Shown: positions 9,286-21,025, numbered from the stretch's first letter. The stretch: DNA of 60,990 nucleotides from Candidatus Kaiserbacteria bacterium (GCA_021413775.1 JAIOPS010000036.1:1-60990); one strand, 5' to 3'. Translations and numbers: made by a program. Notes: generated from the sequence alone by a model not told the origin.

Positions 9286-10676
9286 GCTTTCTTGTCGATG
9301 CGTATGCCGAGTTCGATTAACTGTTCGGGTGTAAGCGGCTTCGGCGCGCGCATAACCGCCGTCTGGCCGCCTCTGCTCATCGGAAACGCGACGACTTCCC
9401 GCAAATACGATTCCCCCGCCAGGTTCATGATGTTGCGCTCGATTCCGAACGCAATACCGCCGTGAGGAGGAGCGCCGTATTTGAAAGCCTGCAGCATGTG
9501 GCCGATTTTTTCCTCAATTTCCTCGTCGCTCATCCCCATCGCTTTGTATGTCGCTTTCAGTATCTCCGGCTTGTGCGCACGGATGGAGCCGCCGCCGGAT
9601 TCGAAACCGTTGCAAACAAGGTCGTATTGCGTCGTAAGAATATCTCCCAGGTTTTCTCCCTTCATCAGAGCGTCGAGGTGCTCGGGAATAGGCATTGAGA
9701 ACGGATTATGAGTAAACGTCCATCGCCCGTCGTCCGTCTTCTCAAAAAACGGAAAGTCCACGACCCATGCGTACGCGAGTACACCGTTCGCTTTATCTTC
9801 TTCCGTGCGAAGGTCAAATTTGTCGGCACCGTATTTCTCCATTGCGTCCTTGTAGCCGATACGGGGGAACGGCTTCTCTTTTATGGTGAAGCCCATTGTT
9901 TCGACGGTACTCGTTATCATCGCCTCCATAAGAGACATGACGTCATCGCGGGTCACGAACGACATCTCGACATCTATCTGAGTAAACTCGAATCCGCGAT
10001 CGGCGCGGAGGTCTTCATCGCGAAGACATTTCGCAATCTGGAAGTATCGCTCTATTCCGCCGACCATGAGCAGCTGCTTGTACTGTTGCGGCGACTGCGG
10101 CAAAGCGTAAAAATTACCGGGGTTGTGACGGGACGGGACCACGAAGTCGCGCGAGCCTTCGGGCGTGGACTCCGTAAGAAGCGGAGTCTCTATTTCGGCG
10201 AATTTGTTTTGGAAAAGGAACTCTCTGCAGAGCTGAACGAACCGGCTTCTCAGGCGCATGTTTTTCTGCATGCGCTCGCTCCTGAGGTCGAGGTAGCGGT
10301 ATTTCAGCCGGGTGTCCTCGCCGATTACTGAGGTATCGGAAGAAATATCGAAAGGCGGCGTTTCAGCAGCAGCCAGGATTTCAATACCCTCAACCTGGAG
10401 CTCGATGTCGCCGTTCAGCTTCCCCGTCTGGACGTTCTTCTCCGGACGTGCGTTCACGATACCTGTGACAGCGACTACGAATTCGGTGCGCACATCGCGT
10501 GCGGATTCTATTGCGGGGCTTTTCGGCAGAACAACGCCCTGTACCGTTCCCGTCATGTCGCGAAAATCAAAAAAGACCATCTTCCCCTGGTCACGGCGGA
10601 CACTTACCCATCCCTGAATTGTCACGCTTGAGCCGACATGCTCTTTCAAGTCTTCTATGTATGTCCGGGTGCTCAT
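9282..10676 (-). CDS. aspS: aspartate--tRNA ligase, bacterial type lacking the GAD insertion
   Basis: OB-fold N-terminus, RLKYRYLDLR, LPQSPQQYKQ, FTQIDVEMSF, GAPPHGG. Confidence 0.93.
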   Translation of the reverse strand: MSTRTYIEDLKEHVGSSVTIQGWVSVRRDQGKMVFFDFRDMTGTVQGVVLPKSPAIESARDVRTEFVVAVTGIVNARPEKNVQTGKLNGDIELQVEGIEILAAAETPPFDISSDTSVIGEDTRLKYRYLDLRSERMQKNMRLRSRFVQLCREFLFQNKFAEIETPLLTESTPEGSRDFVVPSRHNPGNFYALPQSPQQYKQLLMVGGIERYFQIAKCLRDEDLRADRGFEFTQIDVEMSFVTRDDVMSLMEAMITSTVETMGFTIKEKPFPRIGYKDAMEKYGADKFDLRTEEDKANGVLAYAWVVDFPFFEKTDDGRWTFTHNPFSMPIPEHLDALMKGENLGDILTTQYDLVCNGFESGGGSIRAHKPEILKATYKAMGMSDEEIEEKIGHMLQAFKYGAPPHGGIAFGIERNIMNLAGESYLREVVAFPMSRGGQTAVMRAPKPLTPEQLIELGIRIDKKA

Positions 10677-11608
10677 ATGGTAACGCCAATTTTAGCCCGA
10701 ACGGCATTCATCTTCGCGGACGCGAGCATGCGGGCGCGCTCCGCGCCGTCGGCGAGCATCCGCCTCATTTCGTCGTCGGTGATGGCGTCGCGTTTCTCCC
10801 GCATCGGAGCGACGAGGGCTTCGATGTCCTCCACCAGAGCATCTTTCAACGCTTTGTACTTCCCCTTGTTCGCCGTGTACAGCTCGCCGAGCGAGTCTCT
10901 ATCCCGAAGCAGTGCATGGATGGCGTACACATGTTCGGGGCTTTCGGCGTTTGAATCGGTGACGATGGACATAACCGCCTTCGCAATCTCGTCTTTCGTA
11001 CCGAAAAGCGGAATGGTATTGCCGTATGATTTGCTCATCTTTTTTCCGTCCGTACCCGGCACAATCGCGACATCGCGCATGATGCGCTCCTTCGGCTCCT
11101 TGAAGGTCTCACCGAACGCGTTGTTGAACTTCATTGCCGCCTCACGGGCGTATTCTACGTGCTGCTGCTGATCGGAACCGACCGGAACGACGTCTGTGTC
11201 GTAGAGAAGTATGTCGGCCGCCATGAGCATCGGATAATTAAAAAGTCCGGCGTTGGCCTCCAGACCTTTGGCGACCTTGTCTTTGTAGGCGTGCGCCTGC
11301 ATAAGAAACGGAACCGTAACGAGACATTCGAATATCCAGGCCAGCTCCGTGTGCTCAGGTACGTCGCTTTGTTTAAAAATGACGGCTGCGGATGTGTCAA
11401 TTCCCGCCGCAACGTAATCTTTTGCGACGTTCATAATGTTTGTGCGGAGCTCGGCCGGTGCACGAAGCGTCGTCAGTGCGTGATAATCGGCAATCATGAG
11501 AAAACTTTCGTACTCCTTCGAGAGCTCAACAAACGGCTTGAGTGCGCCGAAGTAGTTGCCGATATGAAGCATTCCGGATGGCTGAAGACCCGTCAGTAAC
11601 CTTTGCAT
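10673..11608 (-). CDS. trpS: tryptophan--tRNA ligase
   Basis: TGLQPSG-HIGN, YPMLMAADIL, KMSKS; ATG 11608 with TATATT 7 nt upstream. Confidence 0.95.
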   Translation of the reverse strand: MQRLLTGLQPSGMLHIGNYFGALKPFVELSKEYESFLMIADYHALTTLRAPAELRTNIMNVAKDYVAAGIDTSAAVIFKQSDVPEHTELAWIFECLVTVPFLMQAHAYKDKVAKGLEANAGLFNYPMLMAADILLYDTDVVPVGSDQQQHVEYAREAAMKFNNAFGETFKEPKERIMRDVAIVPGTDGKKMSKSYGNTIPLFGTKDEIAKAVMSIVTDSNAESPEHVYAIHALLRDRDSLGELYTANKGKYKALKDALVEDIEALVAPMREKRDAITDDEMRRMLADGAERARMLASAKMNAVRAKIGVTI

Positions 11609-11647
11609 AGCGCTCAATATAGCAGGAAATCAGGCATTATCTATTCA

Positions 11648-13261
11648 TTATGCGACAGGCAGTTCGATGACGAACCTCGAGCCTTTGCCCGCTCCGTCGG
11701 ATTCCGCCCACACTTTTCCCCCGTGCGCTTCCACGACTTCTTTCGCGATGTAGAGGCCGTAACCGGTCGAATGCGCGTTTACCTTTATGGAGTCGGTACC
11801 GTGACCGCCTTCGGTAAAGAGCCGCTTCATATCATCCGGCGTTATTCCCACCCCGGTATCCGTGACGGTAAACCGGTACCGGGCCCCGCTGCGGACGGCA
11901 TCCACCTTGATGCTTCCCGACGGCGTGTACTTGATGGAGTTGTCGATGATGTTACGGAACACGTGCCGTTTGATTTTATCCTCGTCGCCCGTAAACAGGC
12001 AGGGTCCCGTTACGGGTATGTGAAATGACAGGTCGACGCCCTTCTCGTGCGCCTGAGGCGCCAGGTCGCGTACTATCGCATCGAGTGCCAGCGCAATATC
12101 AAACGACTGTTTGTGGTAGCTCACGGTTCCCTTCTTAAGATTCGATGCGTCGAGGATGTCTATGACCGTATCCACTCCTTTTCGTGTATCCGCAAGCGCG
12201 GAGACGGAGAGGTCCCGCAGCTGCGGGGTAACCTCGCCCACGTCACCGGATCTGATGGCGTCGAAAACAGCCGCGTTCTTCGTGAGATAGCCTTTGATTT
12301 CATGACTGATGAAATGCAGGAGCGACTCCTGCTGCCGGTTGGCTTTTTCGAGTTCCTGTTCCTGTTCCTGTATCAGCTCTCTCTGTCTGACGAGGTCGAG
12401 CGTATCCTGCACAATTTTGATTGAACCGATGAGCACAACGATGAATGCGGTGACGTTAATCGCAATACCACCGATGTCCGTCGAATACAGAACGTTTACG
12501 AAACTGAAAACAGTCACCATAAATCCCAAGAACGCCGTCGTTGCGACTTTCAGTTGAAACAGGTGGTGACGGTATATCGCATACGACGTCAGTCCGATTA
12601 TGGGGAGGAGAAAGAGTGCTGCAAGAGGAATAAAACTCAGCTGGTTGAGCATAACCGGCAGAAACACGTTGAAGAGCAGAATCAGTACGGCCGTAAGGAG
12701 CATACCGAGAAAAAACACGAAGACCTGCCGGCGTTCAACATCGTGTGCCGCGCGCCATTTCCGGTACAAATGGAGAACTCCGGTGATGAGAAGTCCGAAT
12801 GCCACAAGCGAGAAGAGCGCGATGCCGGGACCTCGCGAAGGATTGGTCACTTCTCCCGCGGGTGCGAGATGCGTTACGCCGGAGAAGACAAACGGAGTGA
12901 GTGTAAGCAGCGCGGTTGCCGCGACCACGGGGGTCAGTATATTCCGGTACCACCCCGGGAATTCTATGCGGGTCGAAGGGAAAACATATGCCAGCCGGAA
13001 GAAAGCGTACGCGTGCAGGACTGAAATACAAATATGTACCCGTAGGGCCCAAAGAGTCGCCGTCGTTGTAGTGAATCGGTACTCCAGGTAATTTGAAATC
13101 CCCCACACGACGGTGAGCATTGCAAAAAGGAGAAACGTTCTGTTCGTGATGCTGGTGCGGTCGTTGAGATAAATGAGAACGCCGAGTAGTGCGATACCGG
13201 TAATGGATATGCCGACCGAAAGCAAATCAAAGTTACTGCCGACGAGCTGCGTGATTCCCAT
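11648..13261 (-). CDS. sensor histidine kinase with about 9 N-terminal TM helices (HisKA_7TM-like intramembrane sensor)
   Basis: About 9 hydrophobic segments; H-box FISHEIK, N-box NIIDNSIKY, G1 DTGVG, G2 STGYGL. Confidence 0.92.
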   Translation of the reverse strand: MGITQLVGSNFDLLSVGISITGIALLGVLIYLNDRTSITNRTFLLFAMLTVVWGISNYLEYRFTTTTATLWALRVHICISVLHAYAFFRLAYVFPSTRIEFPGWYRNILTPVVAATALLTLTPFVFSGVTHLAPAGEVTNPSRGPGIALFSLVAFGLLITGVLHLYRKWRAAHDVERRQVFVFFLGMLLTAVLILLFNVFLPVMLNQLSFIPLAALFLLPIIGLTSYAIYRHHLFQLKVATTAFLGFMVTVFSFVNVLYSTDIGGIAINVTAFIVVLIGSIKIVQDTLDLVRQRELIQEQEQELEKANRQQESLLHFISHEIKGYLTKNAAVFDAIRSGDVGEVTPQLRDLSVSALADTRKGVDTVIDILDASNLKKGTVSYHKQSFDIALALDAIVRDLAPQAHEKGVDLSFHIPVTGPCLFTGDEDKIKRHVFRNIIDNSIKYTPSGSIKVDAVRSGARYRFTVTDTGVGITPDDMKRLFTEGGHGTDSIKVNAHSTGYGLYIAKEVVEAHGGKVWAESDGAGKGSRFVIELPVA

Positions 13262-13263
13262 AG

Positions 13264-14313
13264 TTACTTTTCTTCCACGGAGGACGCGAACGGCAAGCGG
13301 GACGCACGGGCAGTCGGAGCCTCGGCGCGTCCCACGCGGAACATAAAGACGAGATTGCCGTGTATACCGAATGCCGCCTTCGCGGTGTCATAGGAGTCGG
13401 TAATGAGTGCGCGCTGAGCGGCCGAAAACGTTCCGTCATCCCCGCCCTGAATAAGCAATCTGAAGAAAAGCACGCCTGTAAGCGGCTGCAGTGAAAGCCC
13501 CGAGGCGGCGGCGGTAAGCCATACGCGCTCAAGCGCTCTCCCCGCATCCACAAAAGCGCGCGGCTCAAGACTGGGTATGCTCAACGCGCCGAATGCGGCT
13601 GCAGCGGCGTTCGTCGCGCCGTTCTGTGAACGGACCATTTTATGCATTCCGAGCGCGGTCATACACCGGGCGCGACTCCACGCACGTAAGAGCCGGAAGC
13701 CTGCTCGCGCAGGGGGCGGAAGCTCGAGAGTCTCGATGTAAAAACCGATAGAATTCTTATCGTCCTCTTCCTTGGTCCAATTGATATGCGAAAAAAAGAA
13801 GTGATGAATAGCCTTGTGTGTAAGCATCACTTCCTCATTTACCGCACCGATATTTCCGAGTGTTTTCAGGGTTGCTGAATCGTCCACAAGAGTAATTTCC
13901 CCCATGAACCCCGGGGCCGCATTTTTAAGACGCATGCTCTCTGAATCTGAGAGAGGGTCAGCAGCGTAGGCCTTTCTGTTGGACGTGCGCGCTTCGATGA
14001 ATGCGGCTAGCGGGTCGGGTAGTGCTTGCCCGGAAATTGCTATGGTCGCAATGTGCGTAATATCGGTGCTCGGAAAGTAACGCACATCACAGGCTGCCCC
14101 CCTTTCGGATGCGGCGAGACAAAAATTTTCCAGCGCGGCGCCGTTTGCCATGTATGAAGCACGCTGACCCCAATTGTACGGCGATGTATCACGCTCCGGC
14201 CTGTTCCAGAGTTCGACAGTCTCGCCTTTTACGATAAACCGCCAGGGTTGGCAATTCTCGCCCGACGGAGCGCGAAGAGCTTTCTCGAGTGCGTAACGGA
14301 TGACATCGTTCAT
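13264..14313 (-). CDS. nitroreductase-fold (FMN-binding) oxidoreductase, Acg/Rv1355c C-terminal type
   Basis: RAPSGENCQPWRF, R-T-S-N-R-K-A-Y, AGRALERVWLTA, ARASRLP; ATGA overlap with the ThiF gene. Confidence 0.85.
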   Translation of the reverse strand: MNDVIRYALEKALRAPSGENCQPWRFIVKGETVELWNRPERDTSPYNWGQRASYMANGAALENFCLAASERGAACDVRYFPSTDITHIATIAISGQALPDPLAAFIEARTSNRKAYAADPLSDSESMRLKNAAPGFMGEITLVDDSATLKTLGNIGAVNEEVMLTHKAIHHFFFSHINWTKEEDDKNSIGFYIETLELPPPARAGFRLLRAWSRARCMTALGMHKMVRSQNGATNAAAAAFGALSIPSLEPRAFVDAGRALERVWLTAAASGLSLQPLTGVLFFRLLIQGGDDGTFSAAQRALITDSYDTAKAAFGIHGNLVFMFRVGRAEAPTARASRLPFASSVEEK

Positions 14314-15491
14314 AAATCAATATTAAATTTCTTCGCGAACGAACGGGCGACGTTCAGCCTCCGGGCGGATTCCTCCGGAGTACCCCACGCGGGTATCAGC
14401 TTTTCATCGAGAGAGATGAGCGCACGGTTATTTTCCAGTGATTCACCCGTCAGCACCTTGCGCGCACAGTACGCAACCGCCGCGCCGTTAATCATCGCCG
14501 CACCCCCGAGTTGCGGCCATGAGACTATCGTCTTGCCCATTTCCATAAGCGATTCCTGCATGCGCTCCGTCACATTTTCAGGACCGACCAGCTTTGTAAT
14601 GAGGCGACCGGTTTCGAATTTATCAAGACCTCGGAGCATGGCATAACTCACATCGCCCATGCGTCCGTGAAAAAAAGGCGTTTCGGGATCGAGGTCGTAT
14701 CTTTCTATATCGACGACCGCATTATCACCGTTGTCTGCGGCCATCAATACGGGAATACGCCGTTTTCGGGCTTCTTCGCGAATGAGACATTTGACCGCAA
14801 GGTTATCTATTTCGTCAATCACGATGTCGAGACCTTCAAAAAAATCGCTGATGGACTCCTCCTGAAGACCGTCGGTAAAAACCTCGACAGAGGCGTAAGG
14901 GTTCATTTCATATATGCGTCGGGCGGCCATGTGAACCTTGAGCTCGCCGAGCTCGGTCACGCCCGAGAGGATACGGTTCGTGTTGGTGAGAGCGAGCCGG
15001 TCCATGTCGGCAATTTTCATATGCCTGCCGCCTCCCTGCAGCGCGATTGCAAATGCTACGCTCGAACCGACGGAGAGTCCCGCTATGCCGATGGACGCGG
15101 AATAAAAGCGTTTCTGCTCGTCGGCGGTAATGAGATTCATGTTACGTGCCGTTCGTACCGCGTAGAAATCATCCTCGGGAAGAACATGAGAGAGTGCGGA
15201 AAGCCAGGGAAAATACACCCATCGGCCGTGCCGAAGAGTATCGCCGAAGGAATCGAAATATGTCCCGAACTGTGTCTTGAAATCCGGGGTATAGACTAAA
15301 GCTGGATTTTTTATGCCGAAAAGCTCAAGTTGCTGCTCCCGGTAGTCGTCAGAGACGCGACGGATACTACCCGATGCCATGAGAGAGGTGACGGTGTTAC
15401 GGTCCTCATCTTTTGAAAGGTCGAACAAGGTCGACAATGTCGAGAGTTGCGTATCCCCCGCGTCTTTCAAGAGACGTGCCAGGTCATCCAT
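14310..15491 (-). CDS. ThiF/E1-like adenylyltransferase, Rv1355c N-terminal type
   Basis: WVYFPW, RTARNMNLIT, GIAGLSVG nucleotide loop, IADMD-TNTNR, DEIDN, SWPQL. Confidence 0.88.
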   Translation of the reverse strand: MDDLARLLKDAGDTQLSTLSTLFDLSKDEDRNTVTSLMASGSIRRVSDDYREQQLELFGIKNPALVYTPDFKTQFGTYFDSFGDTLRHGRWVYFPWLSALSHVLPEDDFYAVRTARNMNLITADEQKRFYSASIGIAGLSVGSSVAFAIALQGGGRHMKIADMDRLALTNTNRILSGVTELGELKVHMAARRIYEMNPYASVEVFTDGLQEESISDFFEGLDIVIDEIDNLAVKCLIREEARKRRIPVLMAADNGDNAVVDIERYDLDPETPFFHGRMGDVSYAMLRGLDKFETGRLITKLVGPENVTERMQESLMEMGKTIVSWPQLGGAAMINGAAVAYCARKVLTGESLENNRALISLDEKLIPAWGTPEESARRLNVARSFAKKFNIDL

Positions 15492-15531
15492 AAGTACGTG
15501 GCTCTCAGTATACCGCGGTTTTATTGAGGCG

Positions 15532-17079
15532 TTATGCCTTTTTTACCCACTTGTGCTTCGTGCCGTGCGCGAAATGTTCCGCATGATTGTGCGCCCACGT
15601 AATGACGCGCGGATTTACACGGTCCTTCATAGCACCGACGAGGTAGTGATACTCGGTGCTTTTCTGCATAAGACTTTGTTTAATCGCCAGCCCGATTTGC
15701 GCAATGATCTCGTGAGTGCCGTCGACTGAATCCTTGAGCTCGACGTTGACCTCGAGGTACTCGTCCTGATTTTCCGCATGTTTTGTAAACATTGTAAATT
15801 TACCCGTGACGAATGGCTCGAGTTCGGCGGAGTGCAGTCCGTGGCGGATATGTTCCGGGAAGATTATCGCGCCGTAGAGCTTGGTGGAGAGGTCTGCACG
15901 CTCGTACACGTACACGAAGGGCAACTCCCTCACGGTGTCAGCGATACCGGCTTTTTTGATTTCGGCTTTGAGGTCTATCCCCTCCGCTGCGCAGATGCGC
16001 TTCACTTCCGAGTACGTCAATACGCCGCCATGGTCCCCGATATCAAATCTGACGAGAGGCAGCGCGCTTCCGGCGGTCGCATAGATCCGGTTATCAACCG
16101 CCTCGAAGCTTACGAACGACGGTACGAACTGCGCGAGTGTCGGCAGTCTGGTGGCATCGGAAAAGAGCGCCGGAAAAAGCGCCGGATGCGCGATGCTCAG
16201 ATGCCTGATAAGAATGGACAGCGGGGTTTCGGTGGCCATGGTCCCGAGTTCCGCGCTGCCGTAGATATTCATGACATCCCGGTGCGGATTTTTCATGCCC
16301 GTTTTCCGCATAAGGTAGTCGCGGAATTCCTCGGAAAAACCTTCCGCGGCGCACACGACACGCATATCGAAATGCTTCCAGGTCACACCGTTTTCCGGAC
16401 CGTCATCGATAACATCTTTCACAAACGGCGGATAGCCGCACAGTATGAGCTGCGTGTACTGCGGTCCGATTTCGCGGAGCGCCTCAAAGATTTCCTTCTT
16501 GTTTACACCCGGAGTAAGAATTGTGAGGGGGAAATCACGGTCAGAAATTCTTTTGAATGCCTCATACGTGATTATGCCGCCGATCCATACGCCCATGCCG
16601 AATGCGACAATGACGAGTGTCGGTTCTTTCGGGTTCAACCCGCTGTTCTCGAGAAATGTGCGGTGGTACACGTACGACTGCTCGTCTGTCGCGCCTGTAC
16701 GCGGAAAATAAAAGGGTTTGCCGGTCGAACCTGATGTCGCGGAAAGAACAAGCGGCTTACCTGCGAGCGCCCCGGGGAGAATAAGGTCCTCCCATGCGGA
16801 CTTTCTCAGGTAGTTGTCTTTCGACATCGGGGGTACTTTTTTGAAATCCGCTATTGAGTTTACGGTGCGGGAAAGAGTCCCTCGCTCTTTTAAAAAAGTC
16901 CGATATGCGGGAACATGGGAGGCCGCGGTTCTGAATATCTCAAGCATGTACTCCGACTGCATCGCGGACCATTTGGCTGAGCTGCCCGACGGTCCCGGCT
17001 GCAGAAAGAGCGACATCCTCTCAAGGGCCGAGCGTTTCTTGTCGGCAGCCGTCGAGCGCTTCTGACTGGGGCTTTTCAT
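15532..17079 (-). CDS. phenylacetate--CoA ligase family (PaaK-like) adenylate-forming enzyme
   Basis: ATSGSTGKP P-loop, IYGSAELG, VRFDIGD, YERAD core ANL motifs. Confidence 0.88.
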   Translation of the reverse strand: MKSPSQKRSTAADKKRSALERMSLFLQPGPSGSSAKWSAMQSEYMLEIFRTAASHVPAYRTFLKERGTLSRTVNSIADFKKVPPMSKDNYLRKSAWEDLILPGALAGKPLVLSATSGSTGKPFYFPRTGATDEQSYVYHRTFLENSGLNPKEPTLVIVAFGMGVWIGGIITYEAFKRISDRDFPLTILTPGVNKKEIFEALREIGPQYTQLILCGYPPFVKDVIDDGPENGVTWKHFDMRVVCAAEGFSEEFRDYLMRKTGMKNPHRDVMNIYGSAELGTMATETPLSILIRHLSIAHPALFPALFSDATRLPTLAQFVPSFVSFEAVDNRIYATAGSALPLVRFDIGDHGGVLTYSEVKRICAAEGIDLKAEIKKAGIADTVRELPFVYVYERADLSTKLYGAIIFPEHIRHGLHSAELEPFVTGKFTMFTKHAENQDEYLEVNVELKDSVDGTHEIIAQIGLAIKQSLMQKSTEYHYLVGAMKDRVNPRVITWAHNHAEHFAHGTKHKWVKKA

Positions 17080-17214: not shown

Positions 17215-18288
17215 TTAGAGTCCTTCGTTGCGAAGCTTCTCGATGTGCTCTTTGGCTGACTTGGAAAGCTTCTTCGGAAATTGTACGTCGATACGGATGA
17301 GCAAATCTCCACGTGAACGTCCGTGCGGCACACCGTGATTTTTGACACGCACAACTTCGCCGTGGACTGTGCCGGCAGGAATTTCTACGGGAAGCTCACC
17401 GTCGAGCGATTGGACTCTGTACGTTGCGCCGAGAAGCGCGTCGGTCAGTTTTACGGGAAGCGACATCAGAAGTGCGTTTCCTTCCCGCGTAAATGCGGAA
17501 TCAGACTTAACGTGCAACTTGACGTAGAGGTCGCCGGCCGTGCCGCCGGGAACGGCCTCTCCGCGGCCGGGCATCCGTATCATTTCTCCGTTGTCGACGC
17601 CCGCAGGAACGCGGATTTCAATCTCCTCTTCTTTTTTTGCCACACCCGCACCGCGGCACGTACCGCACGGGCTTTCCGGGACCTCTCCCCGACCGTGACA
17701 CTTGGGGCATGCTCTGTTGGATGTGAAGGAGCCGAAAAAAGAATTTCGCGTTTCGTGAATTTCTCCCTTGCCGTTGCAGGTCGAGCAGGTCGTGAGCTTG
17801 GTGCCCGGCGTTGCACCGCTCCCGTCGCACGTGGCGCATATTCCCGTTTTCGTCAGAAGGACACGTCTCTCAGCGCCGAAGACGGCTTCCTTAAATGAGA
17901 GTTCGATATCTATAGAGATGTCACGGCCCCGCTGCTCGCGCGACCCGCCGCCGCCGAAAACGTCGCCGAAGATATCGCCGAGGTCGAATTCAAAAGCTTG
18001 CCCGTTGAACCCCTGCCCGTTGAACCCCTGAAAATTGGAGAAATCAAAGCCGCCGAACCCTTGGCCTTGCGAGCCGCCGCCCGCAAACGTCTTGCCGTAC
18101 GTGTCGTATTCCGCACGCTTCTTCTTATCCGAAAGCACTGCGTAGGCCTCGCTGGCCTCCTTGAACTTGGCCTCGTCGCCCCCTTTTTTGTCGGGATGAT
18201 GCTTCTGAGCGAGCTTTCTGAATGCCGACTTGATGTCGCTTTCGCTCGCATTGCGGGCAACTCCCAGTATCGCGTAGTAATCTTTCAT
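17215..18288 (-). CDS. dnaJ: chaperone DnaJ
   Basis: J domain with HPD, G/F-rich linker, four CxxCxGxG repeats. Confidence 0.97.
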
Positions 18289-18324: not shown

Positions 18325-19173
18325 TTAGGAGAATAGAAATGTTTTTATGAACCTTTCATAGCGCCACGTCTGAAGTTTCGGCCATGCCTGCATGCGGACC
18401 GTTGACCATACGGCGCGGCAGAACGCGAAATCACCGTAATACTGAGAAACGGCCGGAAATCCCGCACGCGCGCATACGGCATCGCACATTGCGAGATATT
18501 CGAGCTTCTGTGAAGGCGTGAAGCGGTACTTCGCGACGTACTCGAAGTCTCCCGGGTCCGGAAACCATTCGACTGTCGAGAGCGCGCAAATCGCGTCGAA
18601 TCCGAACGGTGCGGAAAATGAGTCTTCAAAATCGATAACGCCGAGCGGGTACATGTTTGAGGGATTGAAGTCCCCGTGCGTGAGTACGTACGGGAACCCC
18701 GATATCTTCTGGAGCACGCGCTCGAACTTATCCCGGAGAGATGTTATGTACTGCGGCAATTCTTCCCGCAAAATGTCGAGGTGTATGCCCTTTGCGAAAT
18801 TTTCCGGATCAGGAGTCACGAGCGCTTTTGATTGCGCCGTAAGGTAGCGTTCAGAAACACACAGAAAATCACTGAAGTGGGCGTCAGATACGGAGCCGAG
18901 CGTGCTGAAGTCGCTTTCAAACAGGTCACGGAAGCGTTTCTCACCGAGCGATTGCTCTATGAAGTATGACTCTGTGCCAAACGAACCGACAGAGAGTATA
19001 GACGCAACAGGAAAACCGAGCGCTTCCATTTTCTGATGCGTTGTAAGCTCGCGGGATACAGCCGCCGCGTCGCCGATTCGCAAGTAGCTATCCTTTCCGC
19101 GATAGACGCGCTGTCCGCTGCGCTGCTTCGTAACGAGGGTGAAGTCCGTACCCTCGACTGTGAGATTAGGCAT
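18325..19173 (-). CDS. aminoglycoside phosphotransferase/choline kinase-like protein
   Basis: THGDFNPSN Brenner motif and VIDFE; ATG 19173 overlaps the dnaK stop (ATGCCTAA). Confidence 0.8.
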
Positions 19174-21025
19174 TCGCCTCCGGCCCGCCTTCCGGCTTCG
19201 GTCCTTCAGACGATTGGCCCTTCGATGCATCCGACATTGCCTGCCCGATAGCGCTCATCGCGCCAGAGAGCGTCTCTGTCGCGGACTTAATCGCGGCCGA
19301 GTCATTGCCTCCGCGAACGGATTTTGCGGCATCAATTTTGTCCTGAACGTTTTTGCGGACATCTTCACTTACCTTCTCACCGTGTTCCTTGAGTGCCTTC
19401 TCTGCGCTGTAGATTGTCTGGTCAGCGTGGTTCTGTGCTTCGACGAGATCCTTTTTCTGCTGGTCTTTTTCGGCATTTGTCTCCGCATCCGTCCGCATTT
19501 TTTCAATCTCCGCATCGGAGAGTCCCGAGGAAGCTTCTATGCGAATGGACTGCTCTTTATTGGTGGTTTTGTCCTTCGCTTTCACCGAGAGAATGCCGTT
19601 GGCATCGATGTCGAAGGTAACCTCCACCTGCGGCATTCCGCGCGGCGCCGGCGGAATACCGTCGAGATTGAATCTGCCGAGCGATTTATTGTCTGCAGCC
19701 ATAGGACGCTCGCCCTGGACGACGTGAATTTCAACTGAGGGCTGGTTGTCCGACGCGGTAGAAAATGTCTGCGAGCGCGACGTCGGTATGGTTGTATTGC
19801 GTTCGATGAGCTTTGTCGCGACACCGCCCATCGTCTCGATACCAAGAGAGAGCGGGATAACGTCGAGCAGAAGAACATCTTTCACGTCGCCCTGCAGAAT
19901 TCCTCCTTGAATTGCAGCACCGACCGCAACAACTTCGTCGGGATTTACGCCCATGTGCGGCTTCTTGCCGAAGAATTGTTCGACAGCCTTTTGCATCGCA
20001 GGCATTCGTGTCTGGCCTCCGACGAGAACAATCTCCTGGATGTCGGCGTTCTTGAACGGAGATGCTTCCATCGCGCGCTTCGTGATTGCCATCGCGCGGT
20101 CGAGAAATTCCGTCGAAAGCTCCTCAAGCTTGCCGCGCGTCAGTTTCAGAAGGAGATGCTTCGGACCGGATGCATCCGATGTTATAAACGGAATGTTAAT
20201 TTCCGTTTCCAAAGCCGTAGAAAGCTCTATCTTCGCCTTCTCCGCGGCCTCATCAAGTCGCTGGCGCGCGAGCGTGTCATTGCGGACGTCTATGCCGGAC
20301 TCTTTGCGGTACTCATCGGCAATCCAGTCCATTATTTTCTGATCGATGTCTTTACCGCCGAGGTGCGCGTCGCCGTCGGTCGAGCGGACCTCAATGACGT
20401 CATCACCGACTTCCAGTACTGATATGTCGAATGTACCGCCACCGAAATCGAAGACGACTATTTTTTCATCTTTCTTCTTGTTGAATCCGTATGCGAGCGC
20501 CGCCGCGGTCGGCTCATTGATGATGCGCTTCACGTCGAGACCGGCGATTTTGCCGGCGTCTTTGGTCGCTTGGCGCTGCGTATCGTTGAAATACGCCGGG
20601 ACCGTAATAACGGCTTCGGTGATTGTCTCGCCCAGGCGCGCTTCCGCGTCGGCCTTGAGCTTCTGAAGAATCATCGCCGAAATTTCTTCCGGGCGGTACC
20701 ACTTGTCCCCCATCTGCACCTCGATGCCGCCGTTGTCGGCTTTGCGCATTTCAAACGGAACGGCTGCCTTGTCCTTTTGGACGGCGGGCTCGTCAAAGTT
20801 GTGCCCGATGAACCGTTTAATCTGGTAAATCGTATTCTTCGGATTAGTAACAGCCTGACGGCGCGCAATTTGGCCGACGAGGCGTTCGCCTGTTTTAGAG
20901 AGTGCGATAACTGAGGGTGTCGTCCGTCCGCCTTCCGCGTTTTCGATGATAATCGGTTCTCCGCCGCTCACGACGGCAACCGCTGAGTTGGTCGTACCCA
21001 AGTCAATACCGAGTATTTTAGCCAT
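19166..21025 (-). CDS. dnaK: chaperone DnaK
   Basis: [32 protein letters not shown]. Confidence 0.98.

Follow-up and report, generated by a model that had tools for sequence, protein, structure and literature searches.

A Patescibacteria operon that may join an oxazolone-type pathway to its own membrane receptor kinase

In the LuxM/LuxN and CqsA/CqsS systems, multi-pass histidine kinases without a periplasmic domain sense membrane-permeant autoinducers and are encoded beside the gene of the synthase. Patescibacteria (the Candidate Phyla Radiation, CPR) have minimal genomes and, to our knowledge, almost no known secondary metabolism or cell–cell signalling. Here we describe a four-gene unit, or cassette, at positions 11648-17079 of the window, a 60,990-nucleotide (nt) stretch of Candidatus Kaiserbacteria bacterium (GCA_021413775.1, JAIOPS010000036.1:1-60990), which encodes a PaaK-fold ligase, a ThiF-like enzyme, a nitroreductase-like (NTR) enzyme and a HisKA_7TM histidine kinase. 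Sequence comparison indicates that the enzymes and the membrane sensor of the kinase are inherited and exchanged as one unit, while the transmitter half of the kinase stays with the lineage. The best explanation, in which we place moderate confidence, is that the locus represents the minimal form of a conserved Patescibacteria operon joining a small-molecule pathway to its own membrane receptor.

The closest described enzymes make oxazolones. TyzA/B/C and TrzA/TrzS of mycolic-acid Actinomycetota and OxzA/OxzB of Pseudoalteromonas rubra constitute N-acyl tyrazolone and tryptazolone pathways, in which an N-acyltransferase supplies the substrate and OxzB, TyzB/TyzC and TrzS turn N-acyl aromatic amino acids into oxazolones by cyclisation and desaturation (PMC12856293, PMC10404671). 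The split pair TyzB and TyzC yields tyrazolones (PMC10404671), and Rv1355c is now characterised as TrzS (PMC12856293). OxzB was the first example of an oxazolone synthetase; the physiological role of oxazolones was reported as unknown, and bacteria exposed to them gave no phenotype (bioRxiv 10.1101/2020.06.11.147165). As in these systems, the ThiF-like cyclase of the cassette is adjacent or fused to an oxidase of the NTR superfamily, both forms being seen in our Patescibacteria set; a methyltransferase, the extra gene of stieleriacine clusters (PMC12479983), or an alpha/beta-hydrolase is occasionally added. Unlike them, the locus has no N-acyl amino acid synthase. It encodes instead a 515-residue PaaK-fold ligase, in relatives often with a deaminating enzyme, and a dedicated HisKA_7TM kinase is attached, in a CPR host.

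Among signalling systems, staphylococcal agr offers a parallel. In its hypervariable region, which spans agrB, agrD and agrC, the genes that make the signal co-vary with the membrane sensor of the kinase, whose cytoplasmic half is lineage-typical (PMC10482373). In both systems the kinase lies downstream in the same operon; however, the presumed signal of the cassette would come from adenylating enzymes rather than from a ribosomal peptide, and no AgrA-type regulator is adjacent. The cassette resembles LuxM/LuxN and CqsA/CqsS in that a presumed synthase gene adjoins a multi-helix sensor that lacks a periplasmic domain; the sensor family (HisKA_7TM) and the synthase chemistry differ, and the window kinase is not a hybrid. 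In Bacteroidota, two adjacent enzymes likewise make an N-acyl cyclised amino-acid signal, N-acyl-cyclolysine, whose receptor is, in contrast, a LuxR-family repressor (PMC13080023); the initial annotation of this DNA was mistaken in coupling that system to a sensor kinase.

Enzymes and sensor domain as one unit

The open reading frame (ORF) list and translations confirmed four co-oriented genes in the interval between trpS and dnaJ:

15532-17079, minus strand: PaaK-fold adenylate-forming ligase, 515 residues (AlphaFold2 fold, weak NCBIfam PaaK matches)
14310-15491, minus strand: ThiF-like, putatively ATP-dependent cyclase, 393 residues (PF00899, NF005901 N-terminal half)
13264-14313, minus strand: putative flavin-dependent oxidase of the NTR superfamily, Acg-like, 349 residues (PF00881, NF005901 C-terminal half)
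11648-13261, minus strand: histidine kinase, whole gene, 537 residues (HisKA_7TM, HATPase_c)
12362-13261, minus strand: sensor module of the kinase, residues 1-300, nine predicted transmembrane helices (hydropathy, AlphaFold, trees)
11648-12361, minus strand: transmitter core of the kinase, residues 301-537, with H-box SHEIKG and HATPase_c (profile match, trees)

The junctions, given correctly in the initial annotation, follow from coordinates and sequence: 40 nt separate the ligase stop from the ThiF start, the ThiF and NTR genes share the 4 nt ATGA, and 2 nt lie between the NTR stop and the kinase start.

The initial annotation had staked its proposal on co-conservation of the genes, and the four families are indeed co-conserved in at least 24 family-level Patescibacteria lineages. 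Within a sample of 400 Patescibacteria genomes the ligase was found in 42, ThiF in 40 and both in 35. Forty loci of this sample, from 24 family-level groups with unrelated flanks, were annotated by ORF calling and BLASTP; in 30 of them a same-strand kinase comes after the enzymes, and in one more the kinase lies 2 kb away. By automated count, a kinase comes immediately downstream at 27 of 39 phylum loci, whereas 11 of 405 other flanking ORFs are kinases. The same excess was seen in a second set, drawn from 185,579 species genomes with at least 590 ligase loci, of which the best 80 were used: a kinase comes next at 40 of 67 loci and makes up 16 of 671 other flanking ORFs. Where at least 4.5 kb of downstream sequence was available (59 loci of this set), 50 have a kinase within 7 kb, and 42 have all three of ThiF, NTR and kinase. 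These best 80 loci all carry the labels of CPR lineages, apart from one labelled Gammaproteobacteria.

Co-occurrence was then scored for the sensor domain, using residues 1-290 alone as the query. A match was present in 33 of 35 genomes with both enzymes, in 7/7 with the ligase only and in 1/5 with ThiF only, against 59 of 353 genomes with neither gene, where it was mostly weak; the 26 best sensor matches all fall in ligase-bearing genomes. Pairwise distances of ThiF, ligase and sensor correlate (Spearman 0.39-0.50 over 79 loci, with no neutral control), a result that we do not use as evidence.

Within the genus, a full-length kinase stands beside trpS in most genomes (matches in 95/100, compared with 18/100 for ThiF), and 63 genus kinases, 19 of them cassette-linked, were used for trees. 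In the comparison of phylogenies that the initial annotation had proposed, it is the sensor domain, not the kinase core, whose tree agrees with the cassette. On the sensor tree the cassette label requires 1 change (branch support 93; 0/500 shuffles as low), whereas on the core tree it requires 15, with 107/500 shuffles as low, and grouping the cassette-linked cores in one clade was rejected (difference in log-likelihood 884; approximately unbiased test, p-AU 3e-9). The label changes 11 times on the trpS tree, 12 on that of dnaJ and 8 on the two concatenated, all at the shuffle mean, and 2-3 times on the whole-kinase tree for the same rows.

Adding 26 cassette-linked kinases from other families gave the same picture. 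All cassette-linked sensors (45/45) fall on one side of a single branch (support 98) and all cassette-free genus sensors (44/44) on the other, genus and foreign sensors being interleaved; a single clade of all genus sensors, a group named after viewing the tree, was rejected (p-AU 1.4e-4). The extended core tree separates the genus from the other families with 2 changes, leaving the genus nearly one group.

The window kinase itself changes partner near residue 280-300 of its identity profile. Residues 1-280 are 60-75% identical to the kinases of two cassette-bearing relatives (G023 and G106; G and L numbers denote genomes and loci of our set) and 10-30% identical to that of a cassette-free one (G005), whereas from about residue 290 identity is 70-80% to G005 and 18-50% to G023 and G106. 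The whole core is 69% identical to the G005 core, and G005 also has the nearest trpS. On these trees and profiles we read the kinase as a mosaic: its sensor is co-inherited with the cassette, whereas its core, like trpS and dnaJ, goes with the lineage of the host. Exchange as such a unit would make sense if the sensor had to fit the product and the core the local response regulator. Thus synteny, sensor co-occurrence and the mosaic kinase together reversed our first impression that the kinase was unlinked. The cassette shows adjacent synthase-like and receptor-like genes and a sensor co-varying with the enzymes, a layout in common with autoinducer circuits of the agr, LuxMN and CqsAS type.

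The kinase matches HisKA_7TM (PF16927; 38.6 bits, cut-off 28.6) and HATPase_c (5.3e-26). Pfam HisKA has no match in the window kinase at E<=0.01, where the SHEIKG H-box is nevertheless visible; relatives score 2.8e-12. The nine transmembrane helices of the initial annotation were borne out by hydropathy, which gives eight clear segments and one weaker, and by the AlphaFold model of residues 1-300 (predicted local distance difference test score, pLDDT, 89.8), in which nine long helices leave just a short beta-hairpin loop outside the membrane. The model supports a sensor module made of HisKA_7TM plus two more helices, without an extracytoplasmic domain. Foldseek returned no match of this model in the PDB at E<=0.001; the best hits were helical bundles of G-protein-coupled receptors (E ~1e-2, TM-score 0.3-0.5), and we read no meaning into the likeness. 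Longer cassette kinases elsewhere have the order HisKA_7TM, GAF, HisKA, HATPase_c. Two HisKA_7TM kinases stand in tandem behind one cassette at three loci (L133 of G326, L157 and L290), and at L133 a single-domain receiver lies between them.

In cassette-free relatives the slot between dnaJ (or the 160-residue gene that follows it) and the kinase holds other gene sets (L069-L073, L173-L212). A SET-domain protein (159-191 residues) with a protein of about 215 residues occupies it in 12/63 loci; other contents are a KASIII-like gene, often on the opposite strand, LPG_synthase_C with an EamA transporter, and a NAD_binding_4 reductase. The idea that kinase subtypes go with every type of slot content found mixed support: the SET-domain label takes 2 changes against 6 in one of two sets but 4 against 4 in the second, and for KASIII there were too few rows.

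The remaining features of the region lie outside the system or in front of it:

10673-11617, minus strand: trpS, downstream housekeeping flank, outside the system
17215-18288, minus strand: dnaJ, upstream housekeeping flank, outside the system
17114-17086, minus strand: sigma-70-like motif TGGACA-17-TAAAAT (motif scan)

The motif that the initial annotation had called a full promoter is present; however, the region has 6 promoter-like sites, compared with 4.5 +/- 2.1 in shuffles, and because this count is not above chance the motif by itself is no evidence. Its -10 element ends 6 nt ahead of the ligase ATG, and the predicted transcript would therefore be leaderless or nearly so. The host genome measures 867 kb (43 contigs, 96.8% complete), of which the four genes make up about 0.6%. 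A gene for an APH-like phosphotransferase (301 residues, PF01636 9e-8; window 18325-19230, minus strand) lies between dnaK and dnaJ, its ORF overlapping the end of the dnaK ORF by ~65 nt as called; it is found at the same place in some genus members (for example L069, L071, L190 and L212) and is absent from others.

A predicted oxazolone-type pathway

The ThiF-like protein matches PF00899 (3.4e-22) and the N-terminal half of NF005901, the Rv1355c family (3e-100, model positions 10-340), and the NTR protein matches PF00881 (3.2e-10) and the C-terminal half of the same model (7.7e-48, positions 376-717), as well as the Acg family (9e-40) and PRK14851 (1.2e-50). Their NF005901 scores, 336.5 and 163.3 bits, lie below an equivalog cut-off of 476 bits that was set for the fused protein. 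The E1-type nucleotide-binding residues of adenylating cyclases are kept in the family of the window ThiF (79 homologues), with G138, G142, D162, D164, N170, N172, R173, K185 and D229 conserved in at least 93%. Among solved structures, TcdA comes closest to ThiF and the Acg nitroreductase to NTR; TcdA, too, closes an oxazolone ring, in its case on tRNA (PMC12596934). Judged by these profiles, the pair represents a Rv1355c/TrzS homologue split over two genes, and in this form the kinship with OxzB-type enzymes proposed in the initial annotation held. A fused ThiF-NTR protein of 726 residues is encoded in a relative of the same genus (G099; L057, 4458-6638), where the cassette opens with an aromatic amino-acid lyase in place of the aminotransferase. 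In five genomes (G057, G077, G472, G187 and G163) otherwise full-length ThiF matches contain in-frame stops (TGA, TAG or TAA), which may be due to decay of the gene copy, to errors in sequencing or to recoding.

The ligase has no Pfam match, AMP-binding included, and its NCBIfam PaaK matches are weak (3.4e-9). Identity as a PaaK orthologue was rejected, the scores (35.8 and 32.7 bits) being far below the equivalog cut-offs of 700 and 646. Its AlphaFold2 model (pLDDT 87.2), however, found PaaK1/2 as top Foldseek matches (E 6e-23) and, further down, AjiA1 and ClxA; for 2y27 and 2y4o the E values are 6e-23 to 4e-21, with TM-scores by target of 0.64-0.67. Among 26 homologues G117, G120, R127, D349 and K508 are invariant and a TSGSTG..P motif is conserved, which we take to be the ANL P-loop, K508 presumably being the C-terminal catalytic lysine. 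Modelling thus assigns to the ligase a two-domain PaaK-like, ANL adenylate-forming fold with a P-loop and a C-terminal lysine. It has these features in common with PaaK and with ClxA, NatL2 and AjiA1, amide or ester ligases of benzoxazole pathways (Foldseek E 6e-23 to 2e-16), but is 15-18% identical to them and about 80 residues longer. ClxA is termed an amide ligase (PMC12519233). Ligase-like clusters of about 503 residues, labelled Actinomycetota and Cyanobacteriota, are listed in the Atlas.

An N-acyl amino acid synthase of the OxzA/TyzA/TrzA type was not found in the window. The profile PF13444 (Acetyltransf_5), which we take to be the Pfam family of these synthases, had no match in the whole genome, and no acyltransferase is among the recurrent neighbour families of cassette loci. 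We infer that the PaaK-fold ligase replaces the N-acyltransferase of the known oxazolone pathways.

The canonical order in the genus is dnaJ, a 160-residue gene, aminotransferase, ligase, ThiF, NTR, kinase, trpS. Elsewhere the aminotransferase is swapped for a dehydrogenase of the Glu/Leu/Phe/Val type or for an aromatic ammonia-lyase (E 1e-152). Because three alternative deaminating enzymes thus precede an acid-activating ligase, we propose that the ligase N-acylates an amino acid. The gene of about 160 residues, which has no Pfam match, follows dnaJ in most relatives of the genus and order (for example L007:11301-11783) and is missing from the window. A reduced form occurs at L169-L171 (G145, G172 and G181), where the kinase directly follows the ligase and NTR is missing from all three; two of these loci keep a short ThiF-like gene (263-276 residues).

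The proposed pathway would begin, in many relatives, with an aminotransferase, dehydrogenase or ammonia-lyase that deaminates a probably aromatic amino acid to a 2-oxo or acrylic acid. The ligase would activate a carboxylic acid by adenylation and attach it to an amino acid at the amine, so that an N-acyl amino acid results. By homology to TyzB/TyzC, TrzS and OxzB, the ThiF-like enzyme would then adenylate the amino-acid carboxylate and close an oxazol-5-one ring, which the NTR flavoenzyme would desaturate. The product is predicted to be hydrophobic and labile; the presumably co-transcribed kinase may detect it inside the membrane with its nine-helix sensor and would in turn phosphorylate a response regulator encoded elsewhere.

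Output and competing explanations

Single-domain receivers are the commonest extra neighbour of the cassette elsewhere (22 of ~120 loci). The genome that contains the window encodes three receiver domains, all on other contigs: in a hybrid kinase, in an OmpR-type regulator beside another kinase, and in a 130-residue protein. The last, the sole single-domain receiver of the genome, lies between two T2SSE ATPase genes, one pilB-like (481 residues) and one pilT-like (353 residues), on contig C29:36289-39600 (L295). We suggest, speculatively, that this receiver between pilus-type ATPases is a candidate partner of the kinase.

That the enzymes and the sensor domain are functionally coupled seems to us highly probable, and that the product is of the oxazolone or dehydro-N-acyl-amino-acid type rather probable. 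Sensing of the product by the kinase is held more tentatively, as a claim that could well go either way, because positional replacement, substrate sensing or membrane-state sensing would give the same pattern. Several observations weigh against an operon with its own receptor. The kinase as such is not cassette-specific, because cassette-free relatives have at this position a kinase from the same family whose sensor domain differs; replacement anchored by homology in the kinase core and dnaJ would carry the sensor along by position alone. At ten of the 40 phylum loci the cassette lacks a neighbouring kinase; two of the ten run up to the end of a contig, and in one the cassette adjoins a transposase. 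No response regulator adjoins the kinase in the window, where trpS follows directly, or in the 63 genus loci examined. The trees are quick IQ-TREE searches on related genomes that are not independent, and cassette-free sensors were sampled in this genus only. On the chemical side, the window cassette is a minimal form without the deaminating first gene, and its own genome has no orthologue of the cassette aminotransferase, only paralogues of 24-27% identity, and no aromatic lyase. The ligase could instead form a CoA thioester, like PaaK, although an amide is equally compatible. Finally, known flavin-dependent oxidases use O2, which is possibly scarce in the habitats of such organisms.

These points leave room for other explanations. 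The kinase might be a regulator of an outside cue (a host aromatic acid, the substrate or membrane stress), with the product acting as an effector, such as an antimicrobial, a pigment or a membrane lipid, or with the operon processing a scavenged acid. Conserved adjacency and co-inheritance fit any tight functional link, substrate sensing included, the PaaK-like fold and the amino-acid-deaminating partners would also suit the handling of aromatic acids, and the lack of a role or of an exposure phenotype for oxazolones (bioRxiv 10.1101/2020.06.11.147165) would be in keeping with it. We nevertheless consider this account unlikely: the kinase comes last in the operon after a 2-nt gap, the usual layout of an autoinduction loop, the sensor type stays tied to the enzymes across phylum-scale divergence while host and habitat vary, and no exporter or immunity gene recurs among the cassette neighbours.

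It is less likely still that the enzymes modify the C-terminus of a peptide or protein, or build another heterocycle, like the ThiF-like enzymes in pathways of ribosomally synthesised and post-translationally modified peptides, with the kinase reporting on that product. Rv1355c/TrzS is by far the best family match, and the closest solved ThiF relative, TcdA, forms an oxazolone, even though the substrates of most ThiF-like enzymes are proteins, peptides or tRNA (PMC12596934). The N-acyltransferase that defines known oxazolone clusters is missing and the NCBIfam scores stay below the equivalog cut-off (336.5 and 163.3 against 476 bits), both as such an account would have it; but the gaps of 40 and 135 nt leave no room for a small precursor ORF, and no YcaO, protease or transporter recurs among the cassette neighbours. 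We regard as very improbable that no functional link exists at all, the slot between dnaJ and the kinase being a recombination hotspot in which the sensor half hitch-hikes with any inserted genes because the kinase core is the nearest conserved homology arm. The slot does hold many unrelated gene sets in the genus (the SET pair, the KASIII-like gene, LPG_synthase_C with EamA, the reductase), and labels of other slot types track the kinase tree weakly. Outside the order, however, neighbourhoods differ and the same sensor type yet follows the cassette in 24 family-level lineages; sensor co-occurrence (33/35 against 59/353 genomes) and the maintained tight or overlapping gene junctions argue in the same direction.

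Novelty and biological meaning

The initial annotation knew of no description of this gene combination, and our literature searches found none. The main texts of the oxazolone-enzyme literature consulted and of the ThiF review make no mention of a ligase, a histidine kinase or Patescibacteria. Searches joining Patescibacteria with oxazolone gave unrelated gut-model work only. We found no literature that joins CPR with phenylacetate-CoA ligase and histidine kinase, or Patescibacteria quorum sensing with a biosynthetic gene cluster and a histidine kinase, and in the literature searched HisKA_7TM appears in census work only. The enzymes and the autoinducer receptor kinases are each of known kinds; what is new is their combination, along with the ligase as a substitute, the mosaic structure of the kinase and the occurrence in a CPR host.

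Patescibacteria might even share a phylum-wide autoinducer language of the oxazolone type, written by the ligase, ThiF and flavoenzyme and read by the nine-helix sensor. Synthase and sensor would pass between lineages as a module and be grafted on local kinase cores, which would preserve the wiring from kinase to response regulator, and the output may run through single-domain receivers to type IV pili and host attachment; this is a proposal that we think somewhat unlikely. For oxazolones, whose purpose has been in question, the pathway here arrives with a candidate receptor, and PaaK-fold ligases may stand in for N-acyltransferases in oxazolone chemistry. The kinase would be a case of natural domain grafting, its sensor swapped with the synthase and its transmitter kept, which offers a ready design for chimeric reporters. 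If operon and receptor are joined as we propose, the locus would give CPR bacteria their first concrete and testable candidate for a signal of their own making together with its receptor.

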